The notes under the pieces: model-generated
What the model saw: the letters and a program-made list of their open reading frames with translations, nothing else
Databases searched by the model: none
What the model was told of the DNA's origin: nothing
Origin: Lentisphaeria bacterium UBA1776
Lineage (GTDB): Bacteria; Verrucomicrobiota; Lentisphaeria; Victivallales; Victivallaceae
Direction of reading: 5' to 3'
Assembly: GCA_002314605.1 (NCBI GenBank)
Contig: DCGO01000095.1
Coordinates: forward strand, 1 to 61,647
Length of the DNA stretch: 61,647 nt
Part shown: one piece after another, positions 21,221 to 58,927 of the stretch
Position numbering within the stretch: position 1 is the first letter of the stretch
Layout: every line of letters begins with the position of its first letter
Program-made: the position numbers and the translations under genes

Positions 21221-21226
21221 GATGAA

Positions 21227-22675: not shown

Positions 22676-22751
22676 AAAACTTCTCCCGGGGAAAAAAACT
22701 GGCCCGGCCGGGGAACCGGCCTGAACTCTGTAATGAATGGAAAGGGAAAAT

Positions 22752-23189: not shown

Positions 23190-23446
23190 GCAAAACCTCT
23201 TTGAATTTGAAATGCTTTTGACAAAAATGTCTTTGCATGAAAGATAATATACCATCTTTCTCCTGAAATGCAAGCTCCGATGCGAAAATTTGAAAAAAAA
23301 GGTCCGCAAGTGCCGCAGGCTCCAGCGCGGGCACACGCCTGTCAGCCGGACAAAATTCAGCGGTCAACAGGTCATTCTGTTCTTGACTTTTTCTGTTCCT
23401 GCGTTACATTTTGGAGTGCGCAAAATTCAACAGGGAGATTGCAGAC

Positions 23447-24547: not shown

Positions 24548-24565
24548 CGCCCGAAAAGAAAAGTC

Positions 24566-25929: not shown

Positions 25930-25932
25930 AAC

Positions 25933-26445: not shown

Positions 26446-26447
26446 CT

Positions 26448-27143: not shown

Positions 27144-27250
27144 TACGCTTCCGCCGGAATTGTAAAAAAAACACCATCGGGACTTGAAAAAAACTCCGAT
27201 GGGGTTATGTTTCCCGATATACGGTACAGACTACTCTTTTGGGGACCATT

Positions 27251-28990: not shown

Positions 28991-29004
28991 TCGAGGTAAA
29001 GATT

Positions 29005-30705: not shown

Positions 30706-30738
30706 TTTTGCAACAGGTTCAACAGGGAGAATTTTCTG

Positions 30739-31812: not shown

Positions 31813-31833
31813 CACAGGAAAGGAGCCTCGCAA

Positions 31834-42714: not shown

Positions 42715-44091
42715 ATGCCGAAGATCACGTTTATGGGTGCGGGAAGCACGGTATTCGCCAAGAATGTTCTCGGGGACTGCATGTGCCGGGAGTCGCTGCA
42801 GGATTCGGAGATCGCGCTGTACGATATTGACGGGGACCGCCTCAAGGAATCCATGACCGTCCTGAATGCCCTGAATGCCAACATCAACAGAAAACGGGCG
42901 AAGATCACCCCTTACCTCGGTACCTCCAATTGCCGGAAGGCCCTCAAAAATGCGGATTTCGTGGTCAACGCCGTTCAGGTCGGCGGCTATGAGCCCTCCA
43001 CCGTCATTGATTTCGAGATCCCGAAAAAATACGGTCTGCGCCAGACCATTGCGGATACGCTCGGAATCGGCGGGATCTTCCGGGCTTTGCGGACCATCCC
43101 GGTCATGCTGGATTTCGCCCGGGACATGGAAGCGGTCTGCCCCGATGCGTGGTTTCTCAATTACACCAACCCCATGGGCATGCTCACCGGCGCTATGCTC
43201 CGGGGGACATCCGTCAAGACGGTCGGGCTCTGTCACAGCGTTCAGGTCTGCATCGACTCCCTCCTGCGTCCCCTCGGGTTCATTGACGAGGATCAGGCCG
43301 GAAAAGGGATCACCGCCGCAGATCTGGGTTATACCGGTCTCATTGCGGGGATCAACCACATGGCGTGGCTCCTTACCCTCAGGAAGGACGGCAAAGACAT
43401 CTATCCGGCCATCCGCAAAGAAGCGGCGAAATTCGTCAAAAAGGAGCGGGGACACCTGAAACATCCCGAAAAGTGCGGTGCCAATCTGGTCCGGCTGGAA
43501 ATGCTGAACCGCTTCGGATTTTACGTCACCGAATCCAGCGAACACAATGCAGAGTATGCGCCCTACTGGATCAAAAAGGCATACCCGGAACTCATCCGTG
43601 AATTCGGCATTCCGCTGGATGAATACCCCCGCCGGTGCGTGTCCCAGATCGAAGGCTGGAAAAAGCAGTACCTCGAGATCTGCGCCAAAGGCAAAGTCAC
43701 CCACAAAGTCTCCCGGGAATACGGTTCTCTCATCATGGATGCCATTACGGCCGACCGGCCCTTCCAGTTCGGCGGCAACGTGCTGAACCGGGGATTCATT
43801 GAAAATCTTCCCGCCGATGCGGTGGTGGAAGTGCCGTGTCTGGCGGACGCCAACGGGATCCGGGGGACCCATGTGGGGCGGCTGCCGGTCCAGTGTGCAG
43901 CCATGAATATGACCAACATCAATGTCCAGCTTCTTGCCGTTGAAGCGGCCCTGACCCTCAAAAAGGATTACATCTACCAGGCCGCCATGCTGGATCCCCA
44001 TACGGCGGCGGAACTCTCCATTGACGATATTGTCGCCATGTGCAACGATCTTATCAAGGCACACGGGAGCATGCTGCCCAAGTATAAATAA
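42715..44091 (+). CDS. glycoside hydrolase family 4 (NAD/Mn-dependent alpha-glucosidase/galactosidase-like)
   Basis: 458 aa. Has an N-terminal Rossmann block KITFMGAGSTVFAKNV plus NYTNPMGMLT and GLCHSVQ typical of GH4. AGGAGG lies 5 nt before the ATG. Confidence 0.85.
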   Translation: MPKITFMGAGSTVFAKNVLGDCMCRESLQDSEIALYDIDGDRLKESMTVLNALNANINRKRAKITPYLGTSNCRKALKNADFVVNAVQVGGYEPSTVIDFEIPKKYGLRQTIADTLGIGGIFRALRTIPVMLDFARDMEAVCPDAWFLNYTNPMGMLTGAMLRGTSVKTVGLCHSVQVCIDSLLRPLGFIDEDQAGKGITAADLGYTGLIAGINHMAWLLTLRKDGKDIYPAIRKEAAKFVKKERGHLKHPEKCGANLVRLEMLNRFGFYVTESSEHNAEYAPYWIKKAYPELIREFGIPLDEYPRRCVSQIEGWKKQYLEICAKGKVTHKVSREYGSLIMDAITADRPFQFGGNVLNRGFIENLPADAVVEVPCLADANGIRGTHVGRLPVQCAAMNMTNINVQLLAVEAALTLKKDYIYQAAMLDPHTAAELSIDDIVAMCNDLIKAHGSMLPKYK

Positions 44092-44132: not shown

Positions 44133-44150
44133 GCGGTATCAAGATACCGC
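44133..44150. terminator. hairpin between convergent genes (candidate bidirectional terminator)
   Basis: GCGGTAT-caag-ATACCGC, a perfect 7-bp stem with a 4-nt loop, between the GH4 stop (44091) and the minus-strand pilin stop (44150-44152). No strong U-tract. Confidence 0.35.
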
Positions 44151-44635
44151 TAATTGGTGATGTCGTCGGCGTTATTGGCGGTATTGTCCGGGCCAATGGA
44201 GCGAACCGTGAAAGCCTTGTGATTTGCGGTATCGGGAGAGGTGTAGAGAAGTTTGTTTCCCCAGGCATCGCAGAGTTCGCCATCGGCATCAATGTACTGC
44301 CGCAGGGATTCCAGATCCAGCATCTTGCGGAAATCTTTGACGTACCTTTCCGGCACATTGCCCCAGCGGATGTTGAGCGCGTTGTCCGCAATGTCGGCAC
44401 CGCCGGTGTCCAGCAGCTGAATGTGGTTCCCGGTTCCCAGTGCAGTCGAATAAAACCCGTGCTTGACCTTGCCGGACTCCAGGGCGGCTTCGATTTGCTT
44501 GATGACGGCCCGGGTGGCGGATTCCCTGGCGGAATTGTTGGCGTAGGAGTAGCCCCCGATGGCAATCCCGGCCAGGACCGCCAGCAGCGCCACCACCATC
44601 ACGATTTCAATCAGGGTGAAAGAAAATTTTTTCAT
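44150..44635 (-). CDS. GspG-like (major-type) pseudopilin, second copy
   Basis: 161 aa. Has the N-terminus MKKFS-FTLIEIVMVVALLAVLAGIAIG with Glu at +5, then DAWGNKLLY and SIGPDN..NNADDITN, which resemble the GspG DPWGNPY and GPDG..DDI motifs. Confidence 0.75.
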   Translation of the reverse strand: MKKFSFTLIEIVMVVALLAVLAGIAIGGYSYANNSARESATRAVIKQIEAALESGKVKHGFYSTALGTGNHIQLLDTGGADIADNALNIRWGNVPERYVKDFRKMLDLESLRQYIDADGELCDAWGNKLLYTSPDTANHKAFTVRSIGPDNTANNADDITN

Positions 44636-44646
44636 AAATAAAGTTC

Positions 44647-45255
44647 CTATTTTTTCTTTTTTTCTTCGACAAATTTCGGCTGTTTGGCCTTGGCGGCGGC
44701 TTCCTGAGCATTCAGGCGCTCAAGGACGGCTTTTTTGATGTCGGCAAGATTGTTCATCCGCTTGACGTTGGTGCATTTGACGGGGCGGCGGCTGACCGCC
44801 CAGTACTCCTTGGCGGTCTTGTTGTAATAGTCGTACCACTGACGGTATTCCTGACTGGCGGTCTGTTTATTGGCGGCCAGAAACCCGAGCTGGATCTTGG
44901 CTTTCAGCAGGGCTTCGGCATAGGCGATGTTCTGTTTGACCCAGCGGCGGGAAAGGCCGGAATCGGATTCGAGAAAATAATACTTGTCGAACCGCTTCAA
45001 ATCCAGAATGTCGAAGCGGAGTTTCGGGACCGTCACATTTTTCCCCTGCAGAAAATCCTTGGAAATGGCGGAAATCTGCAGTTTCAGATACTCGTCGGAA
45101 AGGGCGCTCTTCACCCACTGGAGTTCCATGCCGGAAAAGGTTTTGGGAACGTCCGGCGGGATCTCCACCGCCGCCTTCTTCTTCCCCCGGGGGGCGGCGG
45201 CCAGAGTGAGCGCCAGCATCAGAAGCAGCAGGAGTGAAAAAAGATGTTTCAGCAT
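44647..45255 (-). CDS. secreted Lys-rich protein of unknown function
   Basis: 202 aa with a signal peptide (LLLLLMLALTLAAAP) and a very basic C-terminal tail (AAKAKQPKFVEEKKKK). No family recognised. Embedded between the GspK-like and GspG-like genes with 11-12 nt gaps. Confidence 0.5.
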   Translation of the reverse strand: MLKHLFSLLLLLMLALTLAAAPRGKKKAAVEIPPDVPKTFSGMELQWVKSALSDEYLKLQISAISKDFLQGKNVTVPKLRFDILDLKRFDKYYFLESDSGLSRRWVKQNIAYAEALLKAKIQLGFLAANKQTASQEYRQWYDYYNKTAKEYWAVSRRPVKCTNVKRMNNLADIKKAVLERLNAQEAAAKAKQPKFVEEKKKK

Positions 45256-45267
45256 GGTTGATGATCC

Positions 45268-48261
45268 TTAATCCAGCGGTTCCAGCCGCAAAAGTTTGAC
45301 TTTCCGGTTTGCGGCATCGGTGCCGATTTCGGCGTAGAAGCGCACGGTTCCGGTGATCTCGTCAAAATAAACCCCGTTGTTTCCAATCTCAAATTTTCCG
45401 GAATAGACTGTGGCCGTTTCCGCAGCCGCACCGGGATTGTCCGGCCGCTGTTTGCTGACGGAGAAGCCGGCGGTGGTTCCGATATCCCGGATGGACTGCG
45501 CCGCCAGGATCAGCGTCACCGGGTCCGGGGGCCGGGGATAAAAGCTGACCAGACCGGATACCAGTGCGGGAATGGTTTCCTGCTGGGCGTCCGTAGTTGG
45601 GGCGACCTGGCCGTAGGCATTGTACAACTTCTGACCGCTGGCGGGGGAATAATTGACCAGTTCCGCCCGGCTGAAGAATTTCAGATCCGGCGTCGCAGCT
45701 GTATCCCGTCGGGCCAGAATATTTCCGGCGGCAACCGCCTGTGTTTCCCCAATGGCGGTCCCGGCATATTCATAATTCCAGTGATCCGGCCAGTTCCAGA
45801 CCAGTCCCCGGAAAAGTCCGGCATAAAGCAGGGTGCTTTCCACGGTATTTGCCCCAGGCGGATTGTTGATACAGAGCCGGTGGGGGACTTGGACCCGGGG
45901 GGTGAGTTTGACCTGGTCCAGAATCCCGGCATCCCCCTGTGCATAGGTATCCCCCTCATCTTCCATGCCGGAAAGAGGTGTGTCCGTGGGGACCCTTCTG
46001 GTGGCCCTTAAGTTGAGGGTCTGCCACTTGGCGGCACGGTGAATGCCTCCCAGTTCCGCAAAAGACTGCATGGGAGCGTTGCGGATATAAGCGCTGGAAA
46101 TATTTTCCGGCAATGCCGCCGATTCCATGTCCTTGTCGGCAACGGCTCCGGCACTGTTGGCCGGGTTGCAGAAATCGTTTTTGGTTTTGAACGTAAACTT
46201 TATTCCCATGGCGGCTTCGCTGCCCGCCGCGGTCCCGGTCCCGGTCCCGGTCCCGGAAACCGTTTCCGGACCGTCTCCAGATCCCGTCCCCATGGAAGCG
46301 GGGACTTCCACCGGACGCCAGTTCATGGAGGCAACCTCGGTTTGGGACCCCTGATACAGGTTTTCCCGGGGATCATCCGCCTCAAATCCGATATGGGGAT
46401 AGAAGGTCAGGGATTCATCGCTGCTGAAGGATGTATTGAGAAGCGTTGTTCCGTCTCCAAATTGCTCAAAAACCAGATCCCGGACATAATCAACACTGCC
46501 GTCGGATGTTTTCAGATGCACATTGCTGATGGAAAGTTTTTTGATTTTGACCTTGGCGTTCAGAGGGGCCGTCAATTTTATAGTGCTTTGCGGGGTGGAG
46601 AAATTCAAAGACCCGAGGGTAATGGAATTTCCTGCCGCATCGGTCAGAACCAGATTGGCATCGGGAGTTCCGTTGAGCGACAGGATTTTGTACGCATAGC
46701 GCCCGTCTGCGGTCCAGGCGGAGGCGGAACCGCTCAGGGGAATGGAAAATGCACACTTGACTTCCTGAATACGCTTTGCGTCCGCGATGGTCTGTTCCCC
46801 GTCAATGATCTCCACGGTAAACGAAAACTCCCCGGCAATGGACACATCCATATCCGGCATGGTTTCTTCATACATATTGAAGACCTCCACCGCCGCAATG
46901 CGGAGGCCGATGTCATAGCTGTACTCGTACTGGTATTGCGGCGGCTGGCCGTCGGTACCGGGAAAAGCCGTCTCCTGACGCCGGAGCGAAATGGAGGGCC
47001 CGATCATGATCTCATTGATGTACGGGGTCTTTTCATTGCCGGTATAGGTGGGAGGCGTGGTTTCCCAGTCAGCGGAATCCGAGGTGGCAATGCTGTCGGT
47101 ATCGCAGTAGTCGATCAGATTGGCGGCGATCTGCTTCCTTCTGGCGGTCAGGGTGGGATAACTTCCCTTGTCCTTGTGGATCCGGCGCAGGGCGGGGATG
47201 CTGTCAGCCGTTTTCGTGACGTCCCCCACACCCAGCACCGGCAGTGTCATACCTTCTCCGAGAAGCCGCAGGACCAGAGCGTCACTGTTTTTAATATTGC
47301 TCTCGTTACCCAGTTGCTCCCAGTCCGTCCGGGTCAGGTCGAAGCGGTGATATTTGACGTGACTTCCCGGAGTGTTGGGGTTAAAATCCTGTTTGTTGTA
47401 CGCATTGGCGTTGGCCGTGGTGTCCACGTACATATAAACTTCCTCCTCCGTGCCGCTCGGCGGCAGGAACCGGCGGATCACATTGCGCATGCCCAGGGAC
47501 AAGCTGGTCCTGCCGTTGAACATGTCCTGAAAAGTGCTGTAATCGTTGGCCCGGGCGGAATCCTGCTCTTGGCATGTTGTTTTGATGGACTCTTCCGAAG
47601 CGAAACGGTTGTCCAGATCATCCAGCTGCGTTTTCTGCCAGTCCGTCGGATTGGTCAACGTGGTATCCAGATTCAATTCCCGGATACCGAATCCCCGCCG
47701 TCTGGTCCATGTGCTTTTCGTATTCGTGGGAGAAAGGGCCGGATTTCCCCGCAGGATCTCCGAAAAATTCACCGAGCCGGTGGGGAGGATCCAGTAGGCG
47801 TACCGGCCGATGATGGTCGCATTATTGGCCCGGCGGCCGTCGGCATTGTACCCGCTCCAGAGATACTGCCACTGTTCCAAACCGGAAGCCCGGCGCTCTG
47901 TATTGTCGATGGTGGCGGTCAAAAGACTGGTGGCGGGGGTACTCAATTGATCGTTCCGGCCGGCGGCCGGGACATCCTCTTCGCCGGCTTTGAAAACCTC
48001 GGAATTGATGGAGCTCTTCAAATTGCCGATGCCGTCGGCGTCCCCTTGCTGCAGATAGTAGCGCATCAGCATCATGACCCGGTTGACGGCGGAGCGCCCC
48101 AGGAGATTCGCCTGGGTGCGGAAGCGGTAGGCGGCGGCGGTCTTCTGGGAAAGCAGCGTATTGGTGATGAAGGCGATCCCGGTGGCCAGGAGGAGGCTCA
48201 AGATCCCCAAAGAGAGCAGCAGAGCCACTCCATCCTGGCGGTGTTCTGCACGATATTTCAT
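45268..48261 (-). CDS. giant GspK-like minor pseudopilin
   Basis: 997 aa. The N-terminus HRQDGVALLLSLGILSLLLATGIAFI.. is a GspK-style hydrophobic segment without Glu+5. The gene lies directly after the J-like gene (TAATG overlap). A late block reads IRNAPMQSFAELGGI. Confidence 0.65.
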   Translation of the reverse strand: MKYRAEHRQDGVALLLSLGILSLLLATGIAFITNTLLSQKTAAAYRFRTQANLLGRSAVNRVMMLMRYYLQQGDADGIGNLKSSINSEVFKAGEEDVPAAGRNDQLSTPATSLLTATIDNTERRASGLEQWQYLWSGYNADGRRANNATIIGRYAYWILPTGSVNFSEILRGNPALSPTNTKSTWTRRRGFGIRELNLDTTLTNPTDWQKTQLDDLDNRFASEESIKTTCQEQDSARANDYSTFQDMFNGRTSLSLGMRNVIRRFLPPSGTEEEVYMYVDTTANANAYNKQDFNPNTPGSHVKYHRFDLTRTDWEQLGNESNIKNSDALVLRLLGEGMTLPVLGVGDVTKTADSIPALRRIHKDKGSYPTLTARRKQIAANLIDYCDTDSIATSDSADWETTPPTYTGNEKTPYINEIMIGPSISLRRQETAFPGTDGQPPQYQYEYSYDIGLRIAAVEVFNMYEETMPDMDVSIAGEFSFTVEIIDGEQTIADAKRIQEVKCAFSIPLSGSASAWTADGRYAYKILSLNGTPDANLVLTDAAGNSITLGSLNFSTPQSTIKLTAPLNAKVKIKKLSISNVHLKTSDGSVDYVRDLVFEQFGDGTTLLNTSFSSDESLTFYPHIGFEADDPRENLYQGSQTEVASMNWRPVEVPASMGTGSGDGPETVSGTGTGTGTAAGSEAAMGIKFTFKTKNDFCNPANSAGAVADKDMESAALPENISSAYIRNAPMQSFAELGGIHRAAKWQTLNLRATRRVPTDTPLSGMEDEGDTYAQGDAGILDQVKLTPRVQVPHRLCINNPPGANTVESTLLYAGLFRGLVWNWPDHWNYEYAGTAIGETQAVAAGNILARRDTAATPDLKFFSRAELVNYSPASGQKLYNAYGQVAPTTDAQQETIPALVSGLVSFYPRPPDPVTLILAAQSIRDIGTTAGFSVSKQRPDNPGAAAETATVYSGKFEIGNNGVYFDEITGTVRFYAEIGTDAANRKVKLLRLEPLD
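46231..46254. repeat. hexanucleotide microsatellite (GGTCCC)x4 inside the GspK-like gene
   Basis: Four perfect tandem copies read directly from the sequence. They encode (Gly-Thr)4 in SGTGTGTGTAAG on the minus strand. Confidence 0.9.
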
Positions 48262-49037
48262 TAAAACACCCCTAAGTAAATGATCCGGACAAATTCGTAT
48301 TCGTTTTCCTGACGGAACTGCAGCTGGGCGGCGTTTTCCGTCCCGGCCCCCCGCTGCGCGATCCAGGTGTCAAAGGCGTTCTTCGGCATCATTTTCAGGG
48401 TGATCTGCACCGCATGGGGGAACACTCTTGAGGAATACGCGCCGGAGTTCAGGATGTTGAACCCGCTTCCGAAGAGCCGGAATCGGAGTTCCGTAATATG
48501 CCCGACAATGGTTTCCGTGTTATTGGTGAAAACAGTGGATGCCGGACAGGCGGCAGCATTGATGAAATTCGTATTCCCGTTGTCGTTGGCCACCTTCAGC
48601 ACCTGATCGGCGATCACGCCGTTGTCAAGTTTGTTTTCCAGCCAGAAAGACATGTAAAACGCCTTCTGAAATTCCGTTGCCGATGTATGGGAGGAGGGAT
48701 AAAAGGGGGAGTTCCGTGAAAGGTTCACCGGGAAGATCAGCCGCCCGGAGGTATTGTTGTCCGCCGTGGCGCCGAACCAGAAGATCTCCTGATTGTAGGT
48801 GTCGCCGGCTGCCTGATAATAAACGCTCTGCAGTGCGCTGGACATCAGGTCCATGGCGATCCGGGCGTCCGCATACATGTTGTTTTTATCGTCCGTCCGG
48901 CTCCACAGTTTCTGGGTGTCCGTAAAGAATCCAATCACCATCATCATCATGATGGAAAAAATCGCCATGGCGACGATCAGCTCCACCAGGGTAAAGGAGG
49001 ATTTCCGGAACCTGTGTTGAATTTTTCTCATGGTCAT
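48261..49037 (-). CDS. GspJ-like minor pseudopilin
   Basis: 258 aa. Has the N-terminus ..RFRKSS-FTLVELIVAMAIFSIMMMMVIGFF (Glu+5) and sits in the J position of a G-H-I-J-K array. Confidence 0.7.
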   Translation of the reverse strand: MTMRKIQHRFRKSSFTLVELIVAMAIFSIMMMMVIGFFTDTQKLWSRTDDKNNMYADARIAMDLMSSALQSVYYQAAGDTYNQEIFWFGATADNNTSGRLIFPVNLSRNSPFYPSSHTSATEFQKAFYMSFWLENKLDNGVIADQVLKVANDNGNTNFINAAACPASTVFTNNTETIVGHITELRFRLFGSGFNILNSGAYSSRVFPHAVQITLKMMPKNAFDTWIAQRGAGTENAAQLQFRQENEYEFVRIIYLGVF

Positions 49038-49039
49038 GA

Positions 49040-49600
49040 TCAGGCTCCGTAGTCGTAAAGATCAAACCGGTAAATCTGCTTTTCCCGGTCGGCATAAGGT
49101 TTCGTCAGGGGGTAGCTCACTTCGATGAAAATGATTGCGGAACCGGTGGTCATGGAAACCGGAGCCGCCTGGCCCGGAACATGGATGAAATTGCTTTCCC
49201 TCCAGACTCTGGCTTCGGCGGCGAAATCCACCACCGATGCACCATTCACCGTATGGCTCTGCTCATACTTGAAAAGCCCCGCCGTCCCGCAATAGAATAC
49301 CGGCGTATTGGGAATATTGGTCCAGCCGATGGAGGCCGGTTCGCCCGGTTTTGCGGTAGGAAGTCCGTTCAGCAGGGTACTGGAGCGGGGAGAGGTCCCG
49401 GACCGCTGCCACTGATCGCGGATGCTGGTTTCCAGATATCCGGCAAAATACAGCGCCGCATCGGGAACGCTGTTGTCGGCGGTGGCGCTGTTGGTGGCAT
49501 TCAGCCCCACCGGGAAGAGGACCAGGATGCTGGACATGCCGATGGCGATGACCCCCAGCGCCAGCATGATCTCGATCATATTGAAGAACTGCTTTTTCAT
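49040..49600 (-). CDS. GspI-like minor pseudopilin
   Basis: 186 aa. Has the N-terminus MKKQF-FNMIEIMLALGVIAIGMSSILVLFP (Glu+5). The start overlaps the H-like stop (ATGA). Confidence 0.65.
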   Translation of the reverse strand: MKKQFFNMIEIMLALGVIAIGMSSILVLFPVGLNATNSATADNSVPDAALYFAGYLETSIRDQWQRSGTSPRSSTLLNGLPTAKPGEPASIGWTNIPNTPVFYCGTAGLFKYEQSHTVNGASVVDFAAEARVWRESNFIHVPGQAAPVSMTTGSAIIFIEVSYPLTKPYADREKQIYRFDLYDYGA

Positions 49601-50268
49601 TTGATCCTGCCGTTTTCATCAATTTCGGAAACCAGGGCACGACCGGTAAAACGGTTGACGGTGACGGCCATGACGTTGGCGGTGGCATTGCTGCCGCTCC
49701 GCTGGCTCTTATAGATATAATTGCCGTTGGACAATGTGGCCTCCCCCACGCCGATGTAGAAATTCTGATTGGGAGCGACCACGTTCCCGTAGGCGGCGTA
49801 CACGATCCCGGGGCGGGAAGCCGTCGCTCGCCCGACCACCCCGGTGATCGTCTGCAGTGCCGAGGTTCCCGGCGCGGCTCCGTTGGTGGGAAACGAGGGC
49901 TGCGTCCCTTCGCCGCCGTTGTCGAAGATCAGCATCTGGGCGTCTTCCTTCAGCGGGACCCAGTCGGAACCCTCCACCCATCCTTGAAATGCATAAGTAT
50001 TGGAAACATAGCAGTTCCGCAGCGCCTGCGTGTCGGTGAGGCCGGAAACGGTACCGCCCAAGTCAATCACCGTCGCCACGTATTTCCGGTCGTTGATGGC
50101 CCGGGCCTGGGCGAGGTCGAGAGTGTTTTTGATGAGGCCGCAGGTCACGGCCACGCTGTTCCCGTGCATCAAGGCTGAAAAGGCCGGCAGCGCCATGGCC
50201 GCCAGCATGGCCGCCAGCGCCATCACCACCATGATCTCAATTAACGTATAATGCCGAACCTCTTTCAT
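49597..50268 (-). CDS. GspH/FimT-like minor pseudopilin
   Basis: 223 aa from ATG 50268. Has the N-terminus MKEVRH-YTLIEIMVVMALAAMLAAMALPAF (Glu+5). The ORF track extends to a GTG at 50301. Confidence 0.7.
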   Translation of the reverse strand: MKEVRHYTLIEIMVVMALAAMLAAMALPAFSALMHGNSVAVTCGLIKNTLDLAQARAINDRKYVATVIDLGGTVSGLTDTQALRNCYVSNTYAFQGWVEGSDWVPLKEDAQMLIFDNGGEGTQPSFPTNGAAPGTSALQTITGVVGRATASRPGIVYAAYGNVVAPNQNFYIGVGEATLSNGNYIYKSQRSGSNATANVMAVTVNRFTGRALVSEIDENGRIK

Positions 50269-50288
50269 ACGGCCCCTGCTGTTCCGCT

Positions 50289-50990
50289 TTACTTTTCCCA
50301 CCCGCGGACATCGTCGGTCTGGGAAGTGCCGCCGTTGTCGGAATTGAAACTGCCGTTATCGGCGCCATTGGGGCCGTAAGAGTAGATGAACACTTTGCCG
50401 TGCAGCACCAGATTGTTTCCGTCATAATTGGCCGGCGGATTCAGAACCTGGGCGGCGGGGATATAGACCTTTTCCGAACTGTCGGTGCAGATATTGATGT
50501 CATAGGGATTTCCCCACGGGTCGCGCCAAAGTGTGCTGTCATCGCCGGAACTGTAATCCGCCCGGGGATCCAGATACTTGATGTTGCGGATATTGAAATT
50601 CTTGTCGGAAGAAGTCACATCCCGGGGAACCGACAATTCCCGGATCAGGGCATTGTACTGGGTCGAGGAACTGCCGTTGTAGCGGACTACATGGACCGTA
50701 TTGCTGCTGTATGCAGTGGCATTTCTTGCAATGGCGCCGCCATTCACGTTGTAACTCGAATTGACTCTCAAGATCGTCTTGTAATCCCGCTCCACGCCGG
50801 AGAGGGCCATCTTGATGGCACTCATGTCCGCCTTCGCCTGAGTGATCATGCCCCTGGTCTTCGCACTCTGGATCGCCGGAATACCCAAGCCGGCAAGCAG
50901 CACGATGATCCCGATCACCACCAGCAGCTCCACCAGCGTAAACGCCGATCTCTGTTGCATGATGTGTTGAGATGTGTAACCCGTCTTCAT
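50289..50990 (-). CDS. GspG-like major pseudopilin, first copy
   Basis: 233 aa with GGGAGG 6 nt upstream of ATG 50990. Has the N-terminus ..MQQRSA-FTLVELLVVIGIIVLLAGLGIPA (Glu+5) and RDPWGNPY. Confidence 0.8.
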   Translation of the reverse strand: MKTGYTSQHIMQQRSAFTLVELLVVIGIIVLLAGLGIPAIQSAKTRGMITQAKADMSAIKMALSGVERDYKTILRVNSSYNVNGGAIARNATAYSSNTVHVVRYNGSSSTQYNALIRELSVPRDVTSSDKNFNIRNIKYLDPRADYSSGDDSTLWRDPWGNPYDINICTDSSEKVYIPAAQVLNPPANYDGNNLVLHGKVFIYSYGPNGADNGSFNSDNGGTSQTDDVRGWEK

Positions 50991-51020: not shown

Positions 51021-51359
51021 TTATTTCATCTTCAATTCAGATTGCAATTGCCGCAACAGCGGCTGCAGGGGCGGCAAATCCTTTTGAATCGTTTCCCAAA
51101 CCAAAGAATAATCCGTCTGCACATAATCGTGAATCAGAACATTACGCATTCCGGCCATCACCCGCCACGGGATTTCCGGGTGGGAATCCCGGACTTTTTC
51201 TGAAACCCGGCCGGCGGCTTCCCCGATGATCAGAAAATTATAGGATACCGCGTCCTGTTCCAAAACAGACTGCAAAAATTCCTCTTTGCCGCAAGCCGTT
51301 TCACGGATCCTGGCAATGGCGGCCAGAATATGACCGATACGTTGTTCATCTGTAATCAT
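51021..51359 (-). CDS. hepT: HepT (DUF86) RNase toxin of a type VII toxin-antitoxin pair
   Basis: 112 aa from ATG 51359. Has the Rx4HxY motif in GMRNVLIHDY. The start overlaps the mntA stop (ATGA). Confidence 0.85.
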   Translation of the reverse strand: MITDEQRIGHILAAIARIRETACGKEEFLQSVLEQDAVSYNFLIIGEAAGRVSEKVRDSHPEIPWRVMAGMRNVLIHDYVQTDYSLVWETIQKDLPPLQPLLRQLQSELKMK

Positions 51360-51649
51360 AACAGGATCATATCCTTTTGAACACAGGAGCCGAAAACCGG
51401 ATCCCGCAAAGCGGATGAGGGAATCACGTCCACCTTGCACTGCAGCATATCCGCCAAAGCCAGCTGCATATTCACCTGATCGAACAACGAGGCTTTTTCG
51501 GAAAAATCCGCCAAAATATCCACATCGCTTTTCGGAGTTTCCTCCCGGCGCGCACAGGACCCGAACACATAAACCTTCCGGGCATGGTGCAGCCTGGCGA
51601 TCCGGTTGATCTCCGCCTTCATCTGACAGATTTTATCAAGTTGACACAT
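51356..51649 (-). CDS. mntA: MNT-type nucleotidyltransferase antitoxin
   Basis: 97 aa from ATG 51649. Has the nucleotidyltransferase motif VFGSCARREETPKSDVDIL (GSx..SDxD). Confidence 0.85.
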   Translation of the reverse strand: MCQLDKICQMKAEINRIARLHHARKVYVFGSCARREETPKSDVDILADFSEKASLFDQVNMQLALADMLQCKVDVIPSSALRDPVFGSCVQKDMILL

Positions 51650-51912: not shown

Positions 51913-52638
51913 ATGAAGAGAGAACAATATACCCTGATCGAGCTTCTGGTGGTGATCGGGATCATTGCCCTGCTGGCGGGACTGCTGCTGCCGGCTTTGA
52001 ATTCCTCGCGGATCTCCGCCCGGGCGGCGGCCTGCATCAGCAACCAGAAACAGGTTGTGACCGCCATCATCCAGTCCATCAGCGGCAACAAGGACCGTTT
52101 CTATTCTCCGAGATATGACGGAACGAACAATGGGGCAAGTGATGCCACGGTCCGCTGGAGCGCCCGGCTCTACAACCGGAAGTATCTGCAGGACTACAAG
52201 ACCATGCGGTGCACGGAGACCATATTCCCCCCCCCAAGTCAGGGGTCGTACCGGGAAGATGCATTTACCTACGGTGCGGTGTATCACGATGCGGCGGTCA
52301 CCACCGGCTTTGATTTCCGGGGGACCCGGTGTCTGACCACTTCCGGCGGGGATGATGTGCCGCCCACCAAACTCATGCTGGGCGGCTGTTCCATGAATTC
52401 CAACCACGGAGGCGGCGCACTGCTGGATCTGAGTCAATCGGCAACCAGTTCGAATTCTTACGGCACGCTCTCTCTGGCGCACCGGGACAGTGTCAACATG
52501 TTCTTCCTTGACGGCCGGGTGGCACCGGTGAACAAAGCCGAACTGGATGCGAACAGCACGGGCCGGACGCTCTATTATCCCACCACCGCCAACGGCCCCG
52601 CCGGCCTGGTGCCGGCGCGCTACAACAACGGCAAGTGA
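51913..52638 (+). CDS. prepilin-type N-terminal domain protein of the DUF1559 (H-x9-DG) class
   Basis: 241 aa from ATG 51913. Has MKREQ-YTLIELLVVIGIIALLAGLLLPALNSSRISARAAACISNQKQ and, near the C-terminus, AHRDSVNMFFLDGRV. Confidence 0.8.
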   Translation: MKREQYTLIELLVVIGIIALLAGLLLPALNSSRISARAAACISNQKQVVTAIIQSISGNKDRFYSPRYDGTNNGASDATVRWSARLYNRKYLQDYKTMRCTETIFPPPSQGSYREDAFTYGAVYHDAAVTTGFDFRGTRCLTTSGGDDVPPTKLMLGGCSMNSNHGGGALLDLSQSATSSNSYGTLSLAHRDSVNMFFLDGRVAPVNKAELDANSTGRTLYYPTTANGPAGLVPARYNNGK

Positions 52639-52666
52639 TCTCACATATTTCCCAAGGATCCGTGAT

Positions 52667-53620
52667 ATGATGAAGCAGACATTTCTTTTTGCGGCACTGG
52701 CCGTATTCTCCTCTCTGTTTTTCTGCGGCTGCGGCGATGCTTCCGGAGAAAAGACAAAGATCGGCATTTCCATCCCCGCCGCCGACCACGGCTGGACCGG
52801 CGGATGCGTCTATTGGGCCAATCAGGCCAAAAAGAGTATTGAGAAGGCTCATCCGGATCTGGAGGTCATCGTTTCCACCGCCCGGGACGCGGCCGAACAG
52901 GTGGATAAAGTTGAAAATCTGATGGTCCAGGGGATCAAAGCCCTGGTCATCCTCCCCCATGAACCCGGGCCGCTCACCGGCGTCTGCGAGCAGGCCAGAG
53001 CCAAAGAGATCAAACTCATCACCGTTGACCGGGGACTCTCAAAGGATATTGCGGATGTGGTGGTCGCCGGAGACAATCCCGGATTCGGCCGGGCCGGAGC
53101 GGCGGCCATTGCCAGGGCCCTGAACGGCAAAGGCGATATCGTGATGATGGAAGGCATCCCCTGCGTGGTCAATTCCGACCGGGTCAACGCTTTCCGCGCC
53201 GAGATCGCCAAATATCCCGATATCCGCATTCTGGACAGCCAGTCCGCCGGATGGGATACCGCAAAAGGGCTGAAGCTCATGGAGAATTTCCTGCAGAAAT
53301 ACCCGAAGATCGATGCGGTGTGGACCGGGGATGACGATGTTCTCCTGGGGGCGCTCAAGGCTTACGAGGAATCCAAACGCAGGGACGTGAAAGCCTTTGT
53401 GGGCGGCGCCGGCGCCAAACTTGTGGTGAAAATGGTTCTGGACAGGCACCCGCTGGTTCCCTTTGACGTCACCTACCCCCCCCGGATGGTGGAGGTCGGA
53501 GCCCAAATGGCATTGAAGCTCCTGGCTCAGGAGATCACCCCGAAGAAACAGATCGTCCCCGCCGAGATCATTGACCCGGCCAATGCTCAGAAGTACTATT
53601 TCCCCGACTCGGTCTTCTGA
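52667..53620 (+). CDS. periplasmic sugar-binding lipoprotein (ribose/xylose-type PBP fold)
   Basis: 317 aa from ATG 52667 with lipobox SLFFCGC. Has KIGISIPAADHGWTGG, the alternating beta-alpha pattern ..GIKALVILPHEP.., ..KLITVDRGL.. and ..VWTGDDDVLLGALKA. Confidence 0.8.
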   Translation: MMKQTFLFAALAVFSSLFFCGCGDASGEKTKIGISIPAADHGWTGGCVYWANQAKKSIEKAHPDLEVIVSTARDAAEQVDKVENLMVQGIKALVILPHEPGPLTGVCEQARAKEIKLITVDRGLSKDIADVVVAGDNPGFGRAGAAAIARALNGKGDIVMMEGIPCVVNSDRVNAFRAEIAKYPDIRILDSQSAGWDTAKGLKLMENFLQKYPKIDAVWTGDDDVLLGALKAYEESKRRDVKAFVGGAGAKLVVKMVLDRHPLVPFDVTYPPRMVEVGAQMALKLLAQEITPKKQIVPAEIIDPANAQKYYFPDSVF

Positions 53621-53720
53621 CCTTCCGGACCGCCCCCGCCGGAACACTTCCCGTTGAGAAAGTCCGGCACGGGGCACCCTTTTCAGAACCGGCGGAAAGG
53701 TTGAAACAGGCGCCGGAAGT

Positions 53721-54860
53721 TCAGCGTCCGAGGCGTTTCCAGACCGGTTCCATATCCACGATCTCTCCGGTCCTGGCCGCCTGATCGATGGCCAGCGCAA
53801 AAACGGCGCTCTGCAGTCCCTCGTCACCGCTGCACCTGGGCGGTTCGCCGTGGATCATGGTCCGGAGCAGCTCCTGCATGATGTGGGCGTCGCCGCCGCC
53901 GTGGCCGTCGCATTCCTCAAAGGTCAGGGTGTTCACCGCACTGTCGCCGATATTTTTCCAGCTGATGGTCCTGCCGTAAAGGTCCAGGCGCATGGTCCCT
54001 TCGGTCCCGCAGAAGACCATCCGGCGTTCCGGGATCGTGCTGAGCATGGAGCAGCAGAAGGAGACATGGACCCCGTTGCGGAACTCCGCGGCGGAAACAA
54101 GATTGTCATGCAGATCGGAGTCCGCATTGAAGGGCGTTTCGATCCGGTGAGGGTCCCACCAGCAGATGAAAGCCTCTTTGCCGTATTTTTTCTCCAGAAC
54201 GCGGTTTTCCGGGGTGAAGAAACTCCTGCCGTGGAACGCCGCGATCTTTGCGGGGAGGGAGCCGGTGAACCACTCAATAAGATCCAGATCGTGACAGCAT
54301 TTCTCCAGAATATGGGGCCCGGCGTATCTGGTCAGCCGACGCCAGTTGCTCATGATGTAGCCGCCGTGAGCCGGACGGATATTTTCATTGGCCTCAATGG
54401 AAACCAGTTTCCCGAGGGTCCCGGACTGCAGGATCTCCCGGGCCTTCCGGTAAATATCCGCATAACGCAGTACAAACCCCGTGGCAAACTGCAGATTGCA
54501 CGATTTCCATGCATCGTAAATGGTCTGGCAGTCTTCTATGGTTGTTGCCAGCGGTTTTTCGGAAAAAACGTTTTTCCCGGCGGAAAAAGCCCGGACAATG
54601 TCATCTTTGTGGGCGTAATTCGGCGAAAAGATCATGCTCCAGTCCACATCGCACGAAAGAGCCTCCTCCCAGCCGGAACAGATTTTTGCGTCCGGGAAAT
54701 TCCAGCACTGGAATGCGCTTTCCCGGGCGACCGCCTGATCTGGGTCGTAAACCGCGACGATCTCGACCCGGTCCGCTCCATGGGCAAGCAGCTGGCGGAT
54801 AACGTCTCTTGCCCGGTTTCCCGTTCCGGAAACGGCGATTCTGATTTTCCTGTCCATCAT
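53721..54860 (-). CDS. Gfo/Idh/MocA-family oxidoreductase
   Basis: About 379 aa. AGGAGG lies immediately upstream of ATGATG (54860/54857). Has the Rossmann N-terminus KIRIAVSGTGNRA and the EKP motif (VFSEKPLA). Confidence 0.8.
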   Translation of the reverse strand: MMDRKIRIAVSGTGNRARDVIRQLLAHGADRVEIVAVYDPDQAVARESAFQCWNFPDAKICSGWEEALSCDVDWSMIFSPNYAHKDDIVRAFSAGKNVFSEKPLATTIEDCQTIYDAWKSCNLQFATGFVLRYADIYRKAREILQSGTLGKLVSIEANENIRPAHGGYIMSNWRRLTRYAGPHILEKCCHDLDLIEWFTGSLPAKIAAFHGRSFFTPENRVLEKKYGKEAFICWWDPHRIETPFNADSDLHDNLVSAAEFRNGVHVSFCCSMLSTIPERRMVFCGTEGTMRLDLYGRTISWKNIGDSAVNTLTFEECDGHGGGDAHIMQELLRTMIHGEPPRCSGDEGLQSAVFALAIDQAARTGEIVDMEPVWKRLGR

Positions 54861-55231
54861 GATCCTCCTGTGACTCAAAGTTTATCCGGAATTCTGACAA
54901 CGGAATGCGTGTCCGGCATCCGGAAATCCGGGATGCTCATCCCGGGGATGCCGCATCATCTTCCGCATTGCGGTTCAAAAAACAACGGGAGAGAATATAC
55001 AGACGCACCGGGATTTTTGCAAATCTTTTCCGCCGGAACCGTATGAAAATATATGGTAATCCAAAAAAAGAACGGGACCGCACCGGGACCGCATTTTCCG
55101 GAATATGGCTGAAATAAGCGTTTCCGGCATTGAAAATGTTTGTTTTCTGCATGGAAAAATCGGAAAAAAGGGGTACATTATCCGATGTGTATATTCAGGG
55201 ATAGAGCTTTACCGGGAAAGGAGTGCCGAAG

Positions 55232-56563
55232 ATGTCGTTTCTGAAAATCGTAATGGTGGGAGGCGGCAGCTACAACTGGCTCCCGACTTTGCTGGGCGAT
55301 CTGGTCCAGACCCCGGAACTCAAGGGCAGCGAGATCTGGCTCCTGGACCCCCTGACGGATAATGCCCGGGAATTGAAGGCCGCCATCGAAAAGGCCGACG
55401 GTAATGACCCCGATTTCAAATTCATCGTCACCGCCGATGAGGATGAAGCCTTCCGGGGTGCGGATTTCGTGGTGATCACCATTTCCACCGGCGGTCTGGA
55501 AGCGATGCGGCAGGATATCGCCATTCCGGAGAAATACGGCATTCTGCAGACTGTCAGCGATTCCACCGGACCCGGGGGCTGGGCGCGGAATATCCGGAAT
55601 TACAAAATTTTCCGGGACATGGCGCAGAAGATCGAACGCCTTTCTCCCAACGCCGTCATTCTGAACTATTCCAACCCCATGGCGGGCCTTACCGGCGTGA
55701 TCGCCCGGCACACCCGTCTCCGTCATGTGGGACTCTGCCACGGCCTTTTCAGCGTTTACTGGGCCATGGGCCGGATCTTCGGCGTTCCCGAAGAGGATAT
55801 CCGGGTGCGTTTCGCCGGGGTCAATCACTTCTTCTGGGTCACGGAGATGTCTCTGAAGGGACAGGACGGTCTGGCCCTCCTGGAGGAGAAACTCAAGGCA
55901 GCTTCCATGGATGAACTCATCACCAACGGCAGCGACATCGTCCCGGACCACAAGGGAGAAAGCCATCTTCTGGCGGAGGCCTTCTTCAGAAAATACCATG
56001 CCCTCACCTATTTCGAGGACCGGCACACCAGTGAATACATGCCGGGGATCCTGAACGATCCGGCTAAAATGGAGGAGCTCAAACTCATCCGGACCTCCAT
56101 TGAGACCCGTTACGAAAAAGTGAAGAAAAACCGGGCATATACCCTAAAAATGGCCTCCGGCGAAAAGGGGCTCTTCAAACGCAGCCGGGAAACCGCCATC
56201 GACATCATCACCGCCATTGCCTGCAGCCGGAATTTCGCCGATGTGATGAATCTGGTGAACGTGGGACAGATCAGCAATCTCCCCATGGGGGCGGTGGTGG
56301 AGACCATGGGCTGCGTCCGGGACGGCTTCCTGGAACCCATCGCCTACGGCGCGCTGCCGGAAGAACTGGCAAAACTTACGGCCCCCCACTGCACGGTGCA
56401 GAAGATGACCATCGATGCTCTGGCGGAAGGAAACCGCGGGATGCTGCTGGAGGCGCTGCTGCTGGATCCGGCATCGTCATCGCTGCCGAAGGACCGGGTC
56501 TGTGCCATGGCCGAAGAGCTTTACGAGGCCAACCGGCCCTGGTTCCCGGAAAATCTGAAGTGA
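55232..56563 (+). CDS. glycoside hydrolase family 4 paralogue
   Basis: 443 aa from ATG 55232, with AAGGAG upstream. Has KIVMVGGGSYNW, NYSNPMAGLTG and GLCHGLF, paralleling the GH4 gene at 42715. Confidence 0.8.
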   Translation: MSFLKIVMVGGGSYNWLPTLLGDLVQTPELKGSEIWLLDPLTDNARELKAAIEKADGNDPDFKFIVTADEDEAFRGADFVVITISTGGLEAMRQDIAIPEKYGILQTVSDSTGPGGWARNIRNYKIFRDMAQKIERLSPNAVILNYSNPMAGLTGVIARHTRLRHVGLCHGLFSVYWAMGRIFGVPEEDIRVRFAGVNHFFWVTEMSLKGQDGLALLEEKLKAASMDELITNGSDIVPDHKGESHLLAEAFFRKYHALTYFEDRHTSEYMPGILNDPAKMEELKLIRTSIETRYEKVKKNRAYTLKMASGEKGLFKRSRETAIDIITAIACSRNFADVMNLVNVGQISNLPMGAVVETMGCVRDGFLEPIAYGALPEELAKLTAPHCTVQKMTIDALAEGNRGMLLEALLLDPASSSLPKDRVCAMAEELYEANRPWFPENLK

Positions 56564-56599
56564 CCGGCAAAAAAACCGCAGGAAAGGAGCGTGCATTAA

Positions 56600-58900
56600 A
56601 TGGGACTTCTAGACTGGAGTATTGTCATCGTTTTTCTGATCTTCATCGTATGGATGGGCATTTATTCCATGCGGTATGTCCGGAGCATCACCGATTATCT
56701 GGCCTGCGGCCGGGTCTGCGGGCGGTACGTCATTTCGGTAGCGGACGTGGCCAACGGGCTGGCGGTGGTGGTCATGATCGGCGCGGTGGAAGCCGGCTAC
56801 AAGAGCGGCGTCATGTACGGTTTCTGGAGCAGCATCAGCCTGCCGCTGGGCATGTTCATGGGGCTGGCCGGGTTTGTGACCTACCGCTTCCGGCAGACCA
56901 AAGCCATGAGTTTCGGGCAGTTCATCGAAATGCGTTACAGCCGGGGACTGCGGATCTTCGCCTCGACCCTGCGGGCCATTGCCGACATGCTGGCCAATAT
57001 GATTCTGCCGGCGCTGGCGGGAAGGTTCTTCATGTATTTTCTGGATCTTCCGGCATCTTACAATCTCTTCGGTTTTCAGATTTCCACCTTCATGACCATC
57101 ATGCTGGTGTGTCTGACACTGGCCATTTCCATGATCCTCTTCGGGGGAAGTGTGACGCTGGTCATCACCGATACCATTCAGGGCTTGTTCGCCTATCCCA
57201 TTCTGGCCGTTTTCGTGATCTTCGTACTGCTGAAATTTTCGTGGAGCAGTGAAGTTCTGCCGGTGCTTTCCGACCGGGTCAGCGGCGAAAGTTTTCTGAA
57301 CCCCTACGATATTGAGAATCTGCGTGATTTCAACGTCTTCTATCTCTTTGTCGCGCTTTTCAGTTCGGTCCTGAACCGCGGCGTCGGGTTGGGAGCCGGC
57401 GGCGGGACCAGTGCCGCCAAAAGCGCCCACGAGCAGAAAATGGCCGGTGTGCTGGGGACCTGGCGGGGCGGGTTCATGAGCATCTTTTATGCCATGCTGG
57501 TGCTGACGGTCATCGTGTTCATGAATCACAAGGATTTTTCCGCAGAATCCACGGAATGCCGGAAATATCTTTCCACCCGGATCACCAAAGAACTGGTTCC
57601 GGATCAGAAGATCCGGCAGAAGATCCTGACCAGGATCGACGCCATCCCTGCCCACAATCATACCATCGGCAAGGACAAGCCCCTGTCGCTGAAGGATAAC
57701 CTTGACACCCCCTATCTGAACGTCATTTCCGACGTGGCCAAAGAAAATCCCGATGCCGATATCCGGGGACAGGTGCCGCAGTTCCGGACCCTCTTCCATC
57801 AGCTGATGCTGCCGGCCATCATGCGGAAACTGCTTCCCCCCGGACTGATGGGCCTCTTCTGCATGCTGATCATTCTGATGATCATTTCCACCGATGACAG
57901 CCGCATCTACAGTGCGTCCCTTACACTGTCTCAGGATCTGGTGCTGCCGCTCCTGAAGGAGCCGCCCTCCCAGAAAAAGCATATCCTGATCATCCGGCTG
58001 GTCACGGTGGGGGTGGGAGTGTTTTACCTGTGCGGATCGCTGTTCATGTCCCAGCTGGAATATGTGACCATGTTTGTTCACATCATGTACGGGCTCTGGT
58101 GTGCGGGGGCCGGGATCATGGTTCTGGGGGGACTTTATTCCCGGTTCGGGACCACTGCCGGAGCCTGGGCCTCGCTCCTCTCCGGGTCCGGCGTGATGCT
58201 TACCGGCGTCATCATCCAGCGGAACTGGGCCGACTGGGTCTATCCGTGGATGGAAAGTGCAGAACTGGTGGCCCCTGTGGGCAATTTTCTCCAGTGGATC
58301 TCCAGTCCGCTGAACCCCTATGTGGTCTGGTCCATCAATCCGTACAAGTGTCCGATCAACGCGCCGGAGTTCAGTTTCATCGCCATGGTGACCAGCGTCT
58401 GTTTCTACTGCATTGTTTCGGCCCTGACCTTTCGCCGGCCCTTCAATCTGGACCGGATGTTGCACCGCGGCAGATACAATACCGACAACGAAGTGAAGGT
58501 GGTATCCGTCTGGACCTGGAAAAATGTGTTCAGCAAGCTCATCGGCATCACCAATGAATACACCCGGGGGGACAAGATCATCGCCTGGAGCGTCTTCATC
58601 TACACCTTCGGATTGGGCTTCTGCCTCTTTCTGGGGATCGTCGTCTGGAACTGTTTTGATTCCTGGCCGCTTAAATGGTGGGGCAACTATTATCTGATCC
58701 GCACCCTGCTCATTCCCGCCGTCATTGCCGTTGTCTCCACGGTGTGGTTCTTCATCGGCGGTCTTATCGACCTGAAAAAGATGTTCCGCGACCTGAAAAA
58801 CCGGGTGGTGGACAACGATGACAACGGCGTGGTCACCGGCCACGTTTCCCTGAGCGACAAAAAGAAATTCGACAAGATCGACGGCGGCGAAGGAAAATAA
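56600..58900 (+). CDS. sodium:solute symporter (SSS) family transporter, long form
   Basis: 766 aa with many TM segments. Has an SSS-like N-terminus (LDWSIVIVFLIFIVWMGIYS..ITDYLACGR) and extra C-terminal TM segments. Confidence 0.8.
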   Translation: MGLLDWSIVIVFLIFIVWMGIYSMRYVRSITDYLACGRVCGRYVISVADVANGLAVVVMIGAVEAGYKSGVMYGFWSSISLPLGMFMGLAGFVTYRFRQTKAMSFGQFIEMRYSRGLRIFASTLRAIADMLANMILPALAGRFFMYFLDLPASYNLFGFQISTFMTIMLVCLTLAISMILFGGSVTLVITDTIQGLFAYPILAVFVIFVLLKFSWSSEVLPVLSDRVSGESFLNPYDIENLRDFNVFYLFVALFSSVLNRGVGLGAGGGTSAAKSAHEQKMAGVLGTWRGGFMSIFYAMLVLTVIVFMNHKDFSAESTECRKYLSTRITKELVPDQKIRQKILTRIDAIPAHNHTIGKDKPLSLKDNLDTPYLNVISDVAKENPDADIRGQVPQFRTLFHQLMLPAIMRKLLPPGLMGLFCMLIILMIISTDDSRIYSASLTLSQDLVLPLLKEPPSQKKHILIIRLVTVGVGVFYLCGSLFMSQLEYVTMFVHIMYGLWCAGAGIMVLGGLYSRFGTTAGAWASLLSGSGVMLTGVIIQRNWADWVYPWMESAELVAPVGNFLQWISSPLNPYVVWSINPYKCPINAPEFSFIAMVTSVCFYCIVSALTFRRPFNLDRMLHRGRYNTDNEVKVVSVWTWKNVFSKLIGITNEYTRGDKIIAWSVFIYTFGLGFCLFLGIVVWNCFDSWPLKWWGNYYLIRTLLIPAVIAVVSTVWFFIGGLIDLKKMFRDLKNRVVDNDDNGVVTGHVSLSDKKKFDKIDGGEGK

Positions 58901-58927
58901 GCCGGACTTCCGGCCGCAGGAGGCTGT

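Follow-up and report, generated by a model that had tools for sequence, protein, structure and literature searches.

The secreted or bound targets of a type IV filament are determined by the tip of the pseudopilus or pilus. Escherichia coli K-12 encodes the pseudopilins of its type II secretion system (T2SS) in the block gspG-H-I-J-K (b3328-b3332), with one gspG. In Pseudomonas aeruginosa, FimU-PilVWXE and PilY1 prime the assembly of the type IVa pilus (T4aP) and form its tip (PMC5979040, PMC7541494). Here we describe a pseudopilin operon of Lentisphaeria bacterium UBA1776 (Victivallaceae; GenBank assembly GCA_002314605.1), located at 44150-50990 on the minus strand of contig DCGO01000095.1; the 61,647 nucleotides of this stretch are hereafter the window. 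Its seven genes, in the order G1-H-I-J-K-F-G2, encode two GspG-like pseudopilins (G1 and G2), three minor pseudopilin-like proteins (H, I and J), a giant cap-like protein (K) and a small secreted protein (F). We think it fairly probable that this one operon supplies the complete filament module of a T2SS-like type IV filament machine with features of type IV pili.

Gene coordinates and spacings were taken from the open reading frame (ORF) listing of the window and from direct reading of the junctions, which verified positions and lengths (Table 1). The seven genes are co-directional and close-packed, with gaps of 20 nt (G1/H), 2 nt (I/J), 12 nt (K/F) and 11 nt (F/G2) and with overlaps at H/I (ATGA) and J/K (TAATG). 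A first-pass annotation of this DNA had proposed this gene order and overlapping or 2–20 nt junctions, and both were borne out; its comparison with canonical T2SS operons, described as a single gspG followed by H-I-J-K, is likewise a fair one for E. coli K-12. The start of H is the ATG used by gene callers, and a 234-aa ORF with a GTG start that overlaps G1 probably does not mark the true start. The same gene set is present on three independent metagenome contigs and orthologous operons occur in many Lentisphaerota genomes, so the seven ORFs are real genes and not chance. No terminator-like sites above chance level were found between the seven genes, neither a predicted terminator nor a promoter-like site lies between F and G2, and a promoter-like 9/12 match inside K, at its 3' end (45392-45364), is no more than chance would produce. 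A ribosome-binding site (GGGAGG) is located 6 nt 5' of the G1 ATG. Judging by these signs, the seven genes are predicted to form a single transcript.

Related loci were gathered via an alignment of K (79 loci, with four further contigs added for the comparison of gene order), and their ORFs were classified using phmmer and iterated hidden Markov models built from the window proteins. Both end genes encode GspG homologues, G2 a canonical one and G1 an insert-bearing paralogue. When family profiles were cross-compared with E. coli GspG, GspH, GspI, GspJ and GspK, G1 and G2 both scored best on GspG. G2 exceeded the gathering cut-off of Pfam T2SSG (PF08334; 28.0 bits vs 21), and its family profile covered 143 of the 145 E. 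coli GspG residues (hhalign, P 99.5, E 3.8e-22), including DPWGN...PG...YDLLSAGPDG...DDITNW. The profile also matched XcpT (2kep) across the C-terminus in PDB profile searches. G1 itself matched only N_methyl in Pfam, without T2SSG, and T2SSG was matched in six of eight G1 orthologues (best E 7.2e-6). The G1 family aligned to the N-terminus of E. coli GspG (65 columns, P 98.7) and, in a separate hhalign comparison, to the C-terminal block DPWGN...GPNG...DD..W (P 87.5, E 3.6e-6); between these two segments, the globular part of G1 is longer by about 80 residues. A full-length hhalign comparison of G1 with G2 recovered the N-terminal 70 columns only, and the C-terminal block was seen with C-terminal-only alignments. 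Both proteins fell below the cut-off of TIGR01710 GspG (88.85 bits), with 46.6 bits for G2 and 38.3 bits for G1 over the N-terminus. The profile searches therefore assign the flanking genes to GspG, in keeping with the first-pass annotation. G1 and G2 are also the best-conserved proteins of the operon, being 68% and 65% identical, respectively, to their orthologues in one related locus (L004), and both have Phe at +1 and Glu at +5.

H-I-J-K was detected in nearly every related locus of sufficient length, and the position of the G-type genes varies around it. A G2-type gene is upstream of the cassette in 15 loci, with G1 between G2 and H in seven of them: five have the order G2-G1-H-I-J-K-F (L005, L017, L019, L020, L069), and in two (L008, L009) G2 is followed by an opposite-strand gene for a pilin-like protein with an H-X9-DG motif and then by G1. 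The others have G2-H-I-J-K-F (L033, L045, L049, L050, L059) or G2-H-I-J-K without F (L071, L080, L082), and most cassettes with a K of ~1100 aa have no G-type gene nearby. Cassettes of this kind are present in cultured strains too: Victivallis vadensis DSM 14823 (L065) has a related H-I-J-K cassette, and Lentisphaerota strain zth2 (CP071032, L045) encodes G2, H, I, J, K and F but lacks G1. The bracketed order G1-H-I-J-K-F-G2 was found only in the window and in L004, L083, L085 and L086 (K 53%, 57%, 53% and 39% identical, respectively), a clade with K identities of 39–59%; a downstream G2 is also present in two unrelated loci (L063 and L075). Because the G2+G1 pair is kept in a subclade and the position of G2 is not, the bracket is a rearrangement fixed in the clade of the window. 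By this comparison, G2 has moved from an ancestral 5' position to the 3' end, and the bracket is not a functional one. A G gene at each end as a design of the operon is thus not upheld, given that distant relatives have both G paralogues, or G2 alone, at the 5' end. The terminal G2 was nevertheless correctly counted as part of the operon, as it lies 11 nt from F without a terminator and is kept down to 39% K identity, and the secreted protein noted inside the operon proved to be a conserved member, with its place after K retained in relatives.

The labels of H, I, J and K, unlike those of the two G genes, were assigned mainly from gene order, protein size and the character of the N-terminus, and none of the four proteins reached a curated family cut-off in Pfam or NCBIfam. 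The H family profile gave the longest alignment of the cross-comparison to E. coli GspH (87 columns, P 94.9) and matched FimU (4ipu, E 0.0012) in the PDB profile search; its match to TIGR01708 GspH was below threshold (24.5 bits vs 80). The J family profile scored best against E. coli GspJ (60 columns, P 94.8), with 30.7 bits for Pfam N_methyl and 19 bits for TIGR01711 (cut-off 64.85). In the PDB profile searches with the G1, G2, H and J families, mostly the shared pilin helix was matched. The I family comprises 71 ORFs across the related loci; only faint NCBIfam matches to Verru_Chthon B and PilV were obtained, and profile searches and hhalign against E. coli GspI returned no PDB match and no GspI match. 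Its position and pilin-type N-terminus point to an I-like protein.

K has a pilin-type N-terminus, which reads G/VALLLS (the slash marks the putative cleavage site), with Gly at -1 and no Glu5. Across its family G11 is invariant, position +5 is L or F, and Gly occupies -1 in 78 of 92 members. A missing Glu5 is a hallmark of the tip subunits GspK and PilX (PMC7541494). A weak N-terminal match to T2SS_GspK was detected in 22 of 26 K-family members, K itself reached 16 bits against NF037980 (cut-off 130), and the best score of the K family in the cross-comparison was with E. coli GspK, over 21 columns and weak. Verru_Chthon_A was matched (E ≤ 0.01) by 7 of the 26 relatives (best E 7e-10), and the K of the window gave no match. 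Pfam searches of K and the 26 relatives detected no domain, PilY1 and beta-propeller included, apart from a single PilX_N match (1/26). The AlphaFold2 model of K (mean predicted local distance difference test, pLDDT, 74) has a helix at residues 3-71 followed by a large, mostly beta-rich body. Neither Foldseek with this model nor the PDB profile search identified a relative of K in the PDB; Foldseek matches to leukocidins and Ail were dismissed as spurious beta-rich hits with low template-modelling scores. A low-complexity Gly/Thr/Ser linker at residues 660-686 (GTGSGDGPETVSGTGTGTGTAAGSEAA, pLDDT <50) separates the beta-rich middle from a conserved C-terminal region with the motifs AYIRNAPMQS..ELG.IHR..KWQTLNL and GD.GILDQVKLT. 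These may loosely recall the helix-hairpin-helix and NVNTA motifs of GspK. Relatives of K number in the hundreds, all of them in Lentisphaeria/Victivallales metagenome bins from gut, rumen and sediment, which places the window in an uncultured Lentisphaeria bacterium of gut or rumen.

F had no Pfam or NCBIfam match. Its AlphaFold2 model (pLDDT 89) is all-alpha, with seven helices after the signal peptide and a Lys-rich tail, and Foldseek against the PDB returned generic helical bundles only (best E 0.2), the PDB profile search being equally unhelpful. Overall, F has no detectable relation to the families compared (Pfam, NCBIfam and PDB folds), among which PilY2 was not included. A word-indexed homologue search with F or with a 31-member F alignment retrieved 10–11 close relatives only, and an exhaustive profile search of 1.84 billion proteins yielded 63 representative clusters. 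F is immediately 3' of K in 33 related loci, which form a subclade with a K of ~850–1060 aa, and is absent from loci where K is ~1100–1245 aa. On a complete chromosome of a Victivallaceae metagenome-assembled genome (L033; OY761536.1, 9956-20857), the order is G2-H-I-J-K-F-K-F-K-F, with the K copies 47–48% and the F copies 39–42% identical; the K-F pair is repeated in L052 and L051 too. K and F thus duplicate as one unit, the tandem in L033 looks like a set of interchangeable tip modules, and F would be a periplasmic partner of K.

Gly at -1 is the canonical requirement of prepilin peptidases. None of G1, G2, H, I and J has it, the residue being Ala in G1 and Ser in G2. Across the loci Gly occupies -1 in only 9 of 243 proteins of these five families, in which R, S, H, N, K, Y and F are usual. 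This pattern suggests that cleavage in Lentisphaerota follows a relaxed rule or another one, and the near-absence of Gly calls into question the recognition rule that textbooks give for prepilin peptidases.

Table 1. Pseudopilin operon, adjoining genes and candidate machine genes in the window. Slashes in leader sequences mark putative cleavage sites.
Feature	Position	Strand	Description
G1	50289-50990	minus	GspG-like pseudopilin, 233 aa; contains RDPWGNPY; leader ...QQRSA/FTLVE
H	49597-50268	minus	H-like minor pseudopilin, 223 aa from MKEVRHY/TLIE
I	49040-49600	minus	I-like minor pseudopilin, 186 aa; leader MKKQF/FNMIE
J	48261-49037	minus	J-like minor pseudopilin, 258 aa; leader ...RKSS/FTLVE
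K	45268-48261	minus	K-like protein, 997 aa, putative giant cap; pilin-type N-terminus
F	44647-45255	minus	202 aa; N-terminal Sec signal peptide
G2	44150-44635	minus	161 aa; DAWGNKLLY...SIGPDN...DDITN; leader MKKFS/FTLIE
MNT	51356-51649	minus	Toxin-antitoxin pair with HepT (nucleotidyltransferase); Pfam NTP_transf_2/Polbeta
HepT	51021-51359	minus	Toxin-antitoxin pair with MNT (HEPN RNase); Pfam HepT-like
H-X9-DG protein	51913-52638	plus	Prepilin-type protein, 241 aa, divergent; C-terminal H-X9-DG motif (DUF1559-like)
Secretin	19187-21220	minus	Pfam Secretin/Secretin_N; sub-threshold PilQ, MshL and GspD matches
Secretin_N-domain protein	21227-22675	minus	Precedes the secretin
PilB/GspE-like ATPase 1	27239-28990	plus	Pfam T2SSE + MshEN
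PilB/GspE-like ATPase 2	29005-30705	plus	Pfam T2SSE + MshEN
PilT	30739-31812	plus	TIGR01420, 468 bits vs cut-off 319
PilC/GspF	31834-33090	plus	Pfam T2SSF

The remaining machine genes of the window are 11–25 kb from the pseudopilin operon. The secretin and the Secretin_N-domain protein that precedes it (19187-22675) are the likely outer-membrane conduit; that they represent a single secretin gene broken by an in-frame stop was rejected on the grounds of a separate signal peptide at the start of the second ORF. The ATPase profile scores were 670 bits for PilB and 630 bits for GspE, each just under its own cut-off. Two assembly ATPases side by side are unusual, and the 19187-33090 cluster also holds RdgC, ThyX and a TPR-LysM protein of FimV/TsaP-like composition. 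Genes for a T2SSC-like protein, an N0-bearing GspD, GspE and GspF are located 5–9 kb downstream of K in three other Victivallaceae loci (L047, L057, L067), so linkage of the cassette to machine genes recurs. T2SS core genes do not, however, always flank the cassette, as they do so in some Victivallaceae but not in L008, L009, L017, L020 or L045. In other relatives the cassette is flanked on one side by xseA and a site-2-protease-like gene and on the other by a MurD-like gene and rdgC; in the window, rdgC is beside the secretin.

Upstream of the operon, the MNT/HepT pair ends 30 nt before G1. As it is absent from the orthologous operons of L004, L083 and L085, it was probably inserted into the divergent promoter region of the operon; it is possibly co-transcribed with the operon, and a promoter-like site is present upstream of MNT (51797-51769, minus strand). 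Orthologues of the divergent H-X9-DG protein adjoin G1 in L004 (452-1210), L008 (5295-6128), L009 (5605-6870), L083 and L085, and its gene is paired with one for a periplasmic sugar-binding protein in the window, L083 and L085. A convergent glycoside hydrolase family 4 (GH4) gene is downstream of the operon. Overall, the flanks of the operon (42715-44091 and 52547-61600) hold two GH4 genes and genes for a sugar-binding protein, a GFO/IDH/MocA oxidoreductase, an SSF transporter and a GH63-like protein, and GH78 rhamnosidase and GH106 genes are found downstream in L083 (12064-17638) and L085 (9224-11749). These surrounding carbohydrate-use genes may hint at the substrates handled.

By analogy with T2SS and T4aP, H, I, J and the Glu5-less K would nucleate assembly on the inner-membrane platform, with K, about three times the size of GspK, forming the cap. 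F would be exported by Sec to the periplasm and serve K there as its dedicated partner, in the role of chaperone or tip accessory. G2 would polymerise beneath the tip as the shaft. G1 would either link this G2 shaft to the H-I-J-K complex, as an adaptor, or contribute to the shaft as its second subunit. The adaptor role is mildly favoured, since the presumed ancestral order G2-G1-H-I-J-K is the reverse of tip-to-shaft assembly. The roles of G1, F and K, as well as the coupling to the nearby machine, are thus proposed by comparison with these better-known systems.

Several points weigh against this proposal. The assignments of I and K are weak, and K and F have no structural relatives, their putative roles following from position and co-duplication. 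Conservation relative to L004 is about equal for G1 and G2 and favours neither as the major subunit, and the stronger ribosome-binding site belongs to G1, not G2. The missing Gly at -1 in G1, G2, H, I and J leaves their cleavage by prepilin peptidase putative. Finally, coupling to a machine 11–25 kb away is an assumption, and the genome may hold other machines and pilins outside the window.

The first-pass annotation had suggested G1 and G2 as alternative major subunits, with one H-I-J-K tip for two filaments or two filament segments; each of the two tandem ATPases might then drive one of them. Two GspG homologues with Phe1, Glu5 and the C-terminal GspG block, both the best conserved of the operon relative to L004 and kept as a pair across a subclade regardless of gene order, would suit such an arrangement, as would the two adjacent paralogous assembly ATPases. 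A precedent also exists: Thermus thermophilus reportedly makes wide PilA4 and narrow PilA5 pili from one machine, and the PilA4/PilA5 filament structures 6xxd and 6xxe appear among the PDB profile matches of G1/G2. We nonetheless regard this explanation as unlikely. G1 and G2 share one close-packed operon by its sequence signs and show no sign of separate regulation, one G suffices in seven loci with G2 and without G1 (L045, L049, L050, L059, L071, L080 and L082), and the large inserts and narrower distribution of G1, next to the compact and more widespread G2, are more in line with an accessory role.

Read in the manner of T4aP, the locus would be a minor-pilin operon comparable to fimT-fimU-pilV-pilW-pilX-pilY1-pilY2-pilE, with the true major pilin encoded elsewhere; this would cast G2 as a PilE-like low-abundance connector, K as PilX and PilY1 combined and F as a PilY2-like accessory. 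The order of the genes does parallel the Pseudomonas operon (H-like, I, J, Glu5-less K, large tip protein, small ORF and terminal pilin), a bona fide PilT accompanies PilB-like and PilC-like genes in the window, and the lack of a nearby G in most cassettes with a ~1100-aa K indicates that the shaft subunit can be encoded elsewhere. We consider this quite improbable, however, since G2 is a full-length GspG homologue, and GspG is, to our knowledge, the major subunit in every T2SS studied. Moreover, Pfam shows neither a PilY1 nor a beta-propeller domain in K, PilX_N was matched in only one of the 26 family members, and a T2SSC-like protein and an N0-bearing GspD are encoded beside the cassette in Victivallaceae. 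That F merely hitch-hikes in the operon, as a substrate of secretion or as some unrelated protein of the periplasm, which its Sec signal peptide and lack of a pilin motif or known domain would allow, is very unlikely given its strict position right after K in 33 loci, its absence from exactly the clade with the longer K, and the repeated K-F co-duplication, which argues for a specific relationship.

Having G genes at both ends is a variation in gene order and of modest significance; more unusual are the giant cap-like K, the K-F unit, the GspG paralogue pair and the near-absent Gly at -1. The conserved paralogue pair offers a natural case in which to ask whether a T2SS-type shaft can be heteropolymeric. 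A search of the available literature found nothing relevant on Lentisphaerota pseudopilins or on the Verru_Chthon cassette, and this phylum-wide cassette, with its oversized cap and co-duplicating partner, is not known to have been the subject of experiments; it may explain substrate export or capture by the glycoside-hydrolase-rich Lentisphaerota of gut and rumen. Speculatively, and with considerable doubt, the locus could represent a distinct Lentisphaerota filament subtype, with a ~1000-aa pilin-anchored GspK-like cap, a dedicated periplasmic partner F in K-F modules that can be both multiplied and swapped, a heteropolymeric shaft of two GspG proteins and a prepilin peptidase independent of Gly at -1. 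Were this true, the tandem ATPases and PilT would power extension and retraction of a filament that serves as a piston in secretion and as a pilus in adhesion.

Compared with the T2SS block gspG-H-I-J-K, the locus has the same G-H-I-J-K order of overlapping or near-touching genes, a full-length GspG match in G2, H and J proteins that align longest or best with GspH and GspJ, and a K that lacks Glu5 as GspK does. It differs in having two G paralogues and a secreted F after K, in not being within a gspC-O operon, in a K three times longer without a detectable GspK alpha-domain, and in the lack of Gly at -1 in G, H, I and J; except for Pfam T2SSG in G2, all curated cut-offs were missed. The Verru_Chthon cassette, a computationally defined four-gene set of Verrucomicrobia (TIGR02600 A, TIGR02598 B, TIGR02599 C and TIGR02596 D), is alike in being a set of three prepilin-type proteins and one very large protein from the PVC (Planctomycetes-Verrucomicrobia-Chlamydiae) superphylum, whereas the G paralogues and F are outside its definition. 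Scores against its families were far below the cut-offs (H/D 24.3 vs 70, I/B 14.9 vs 51.4 and J/C 51.5 vs 256.5 bits), and the relationship, as far as these profiles indicate, is a distant one that falls short of membership.

The P. aeruginosa T4aP operon fimU-pilVWXY1Y2E shares with the locus a priming or tip complex made of four minor pilins and a large tip protein, as well as a 3'-terminal pilin gene, and the window adds PilT with two PilB/GspE-like genes and PilC/GspF. Unlike in that operon, the terminal pilin of the window is of the GspG type, and K has a pilin-type N-terminus in place of a Sec signal peptide and has no PilY1 domain. Multiple tip modules per genome, as in the triplicated K-F of L033, are also known from Myxococcus clusters 1-3 (PMC7541494, PMC5979040). 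As in the two-pilin system of Thermus, two major-pilin-like paralogues could share one machine, although here the pair is encoded in one operon.

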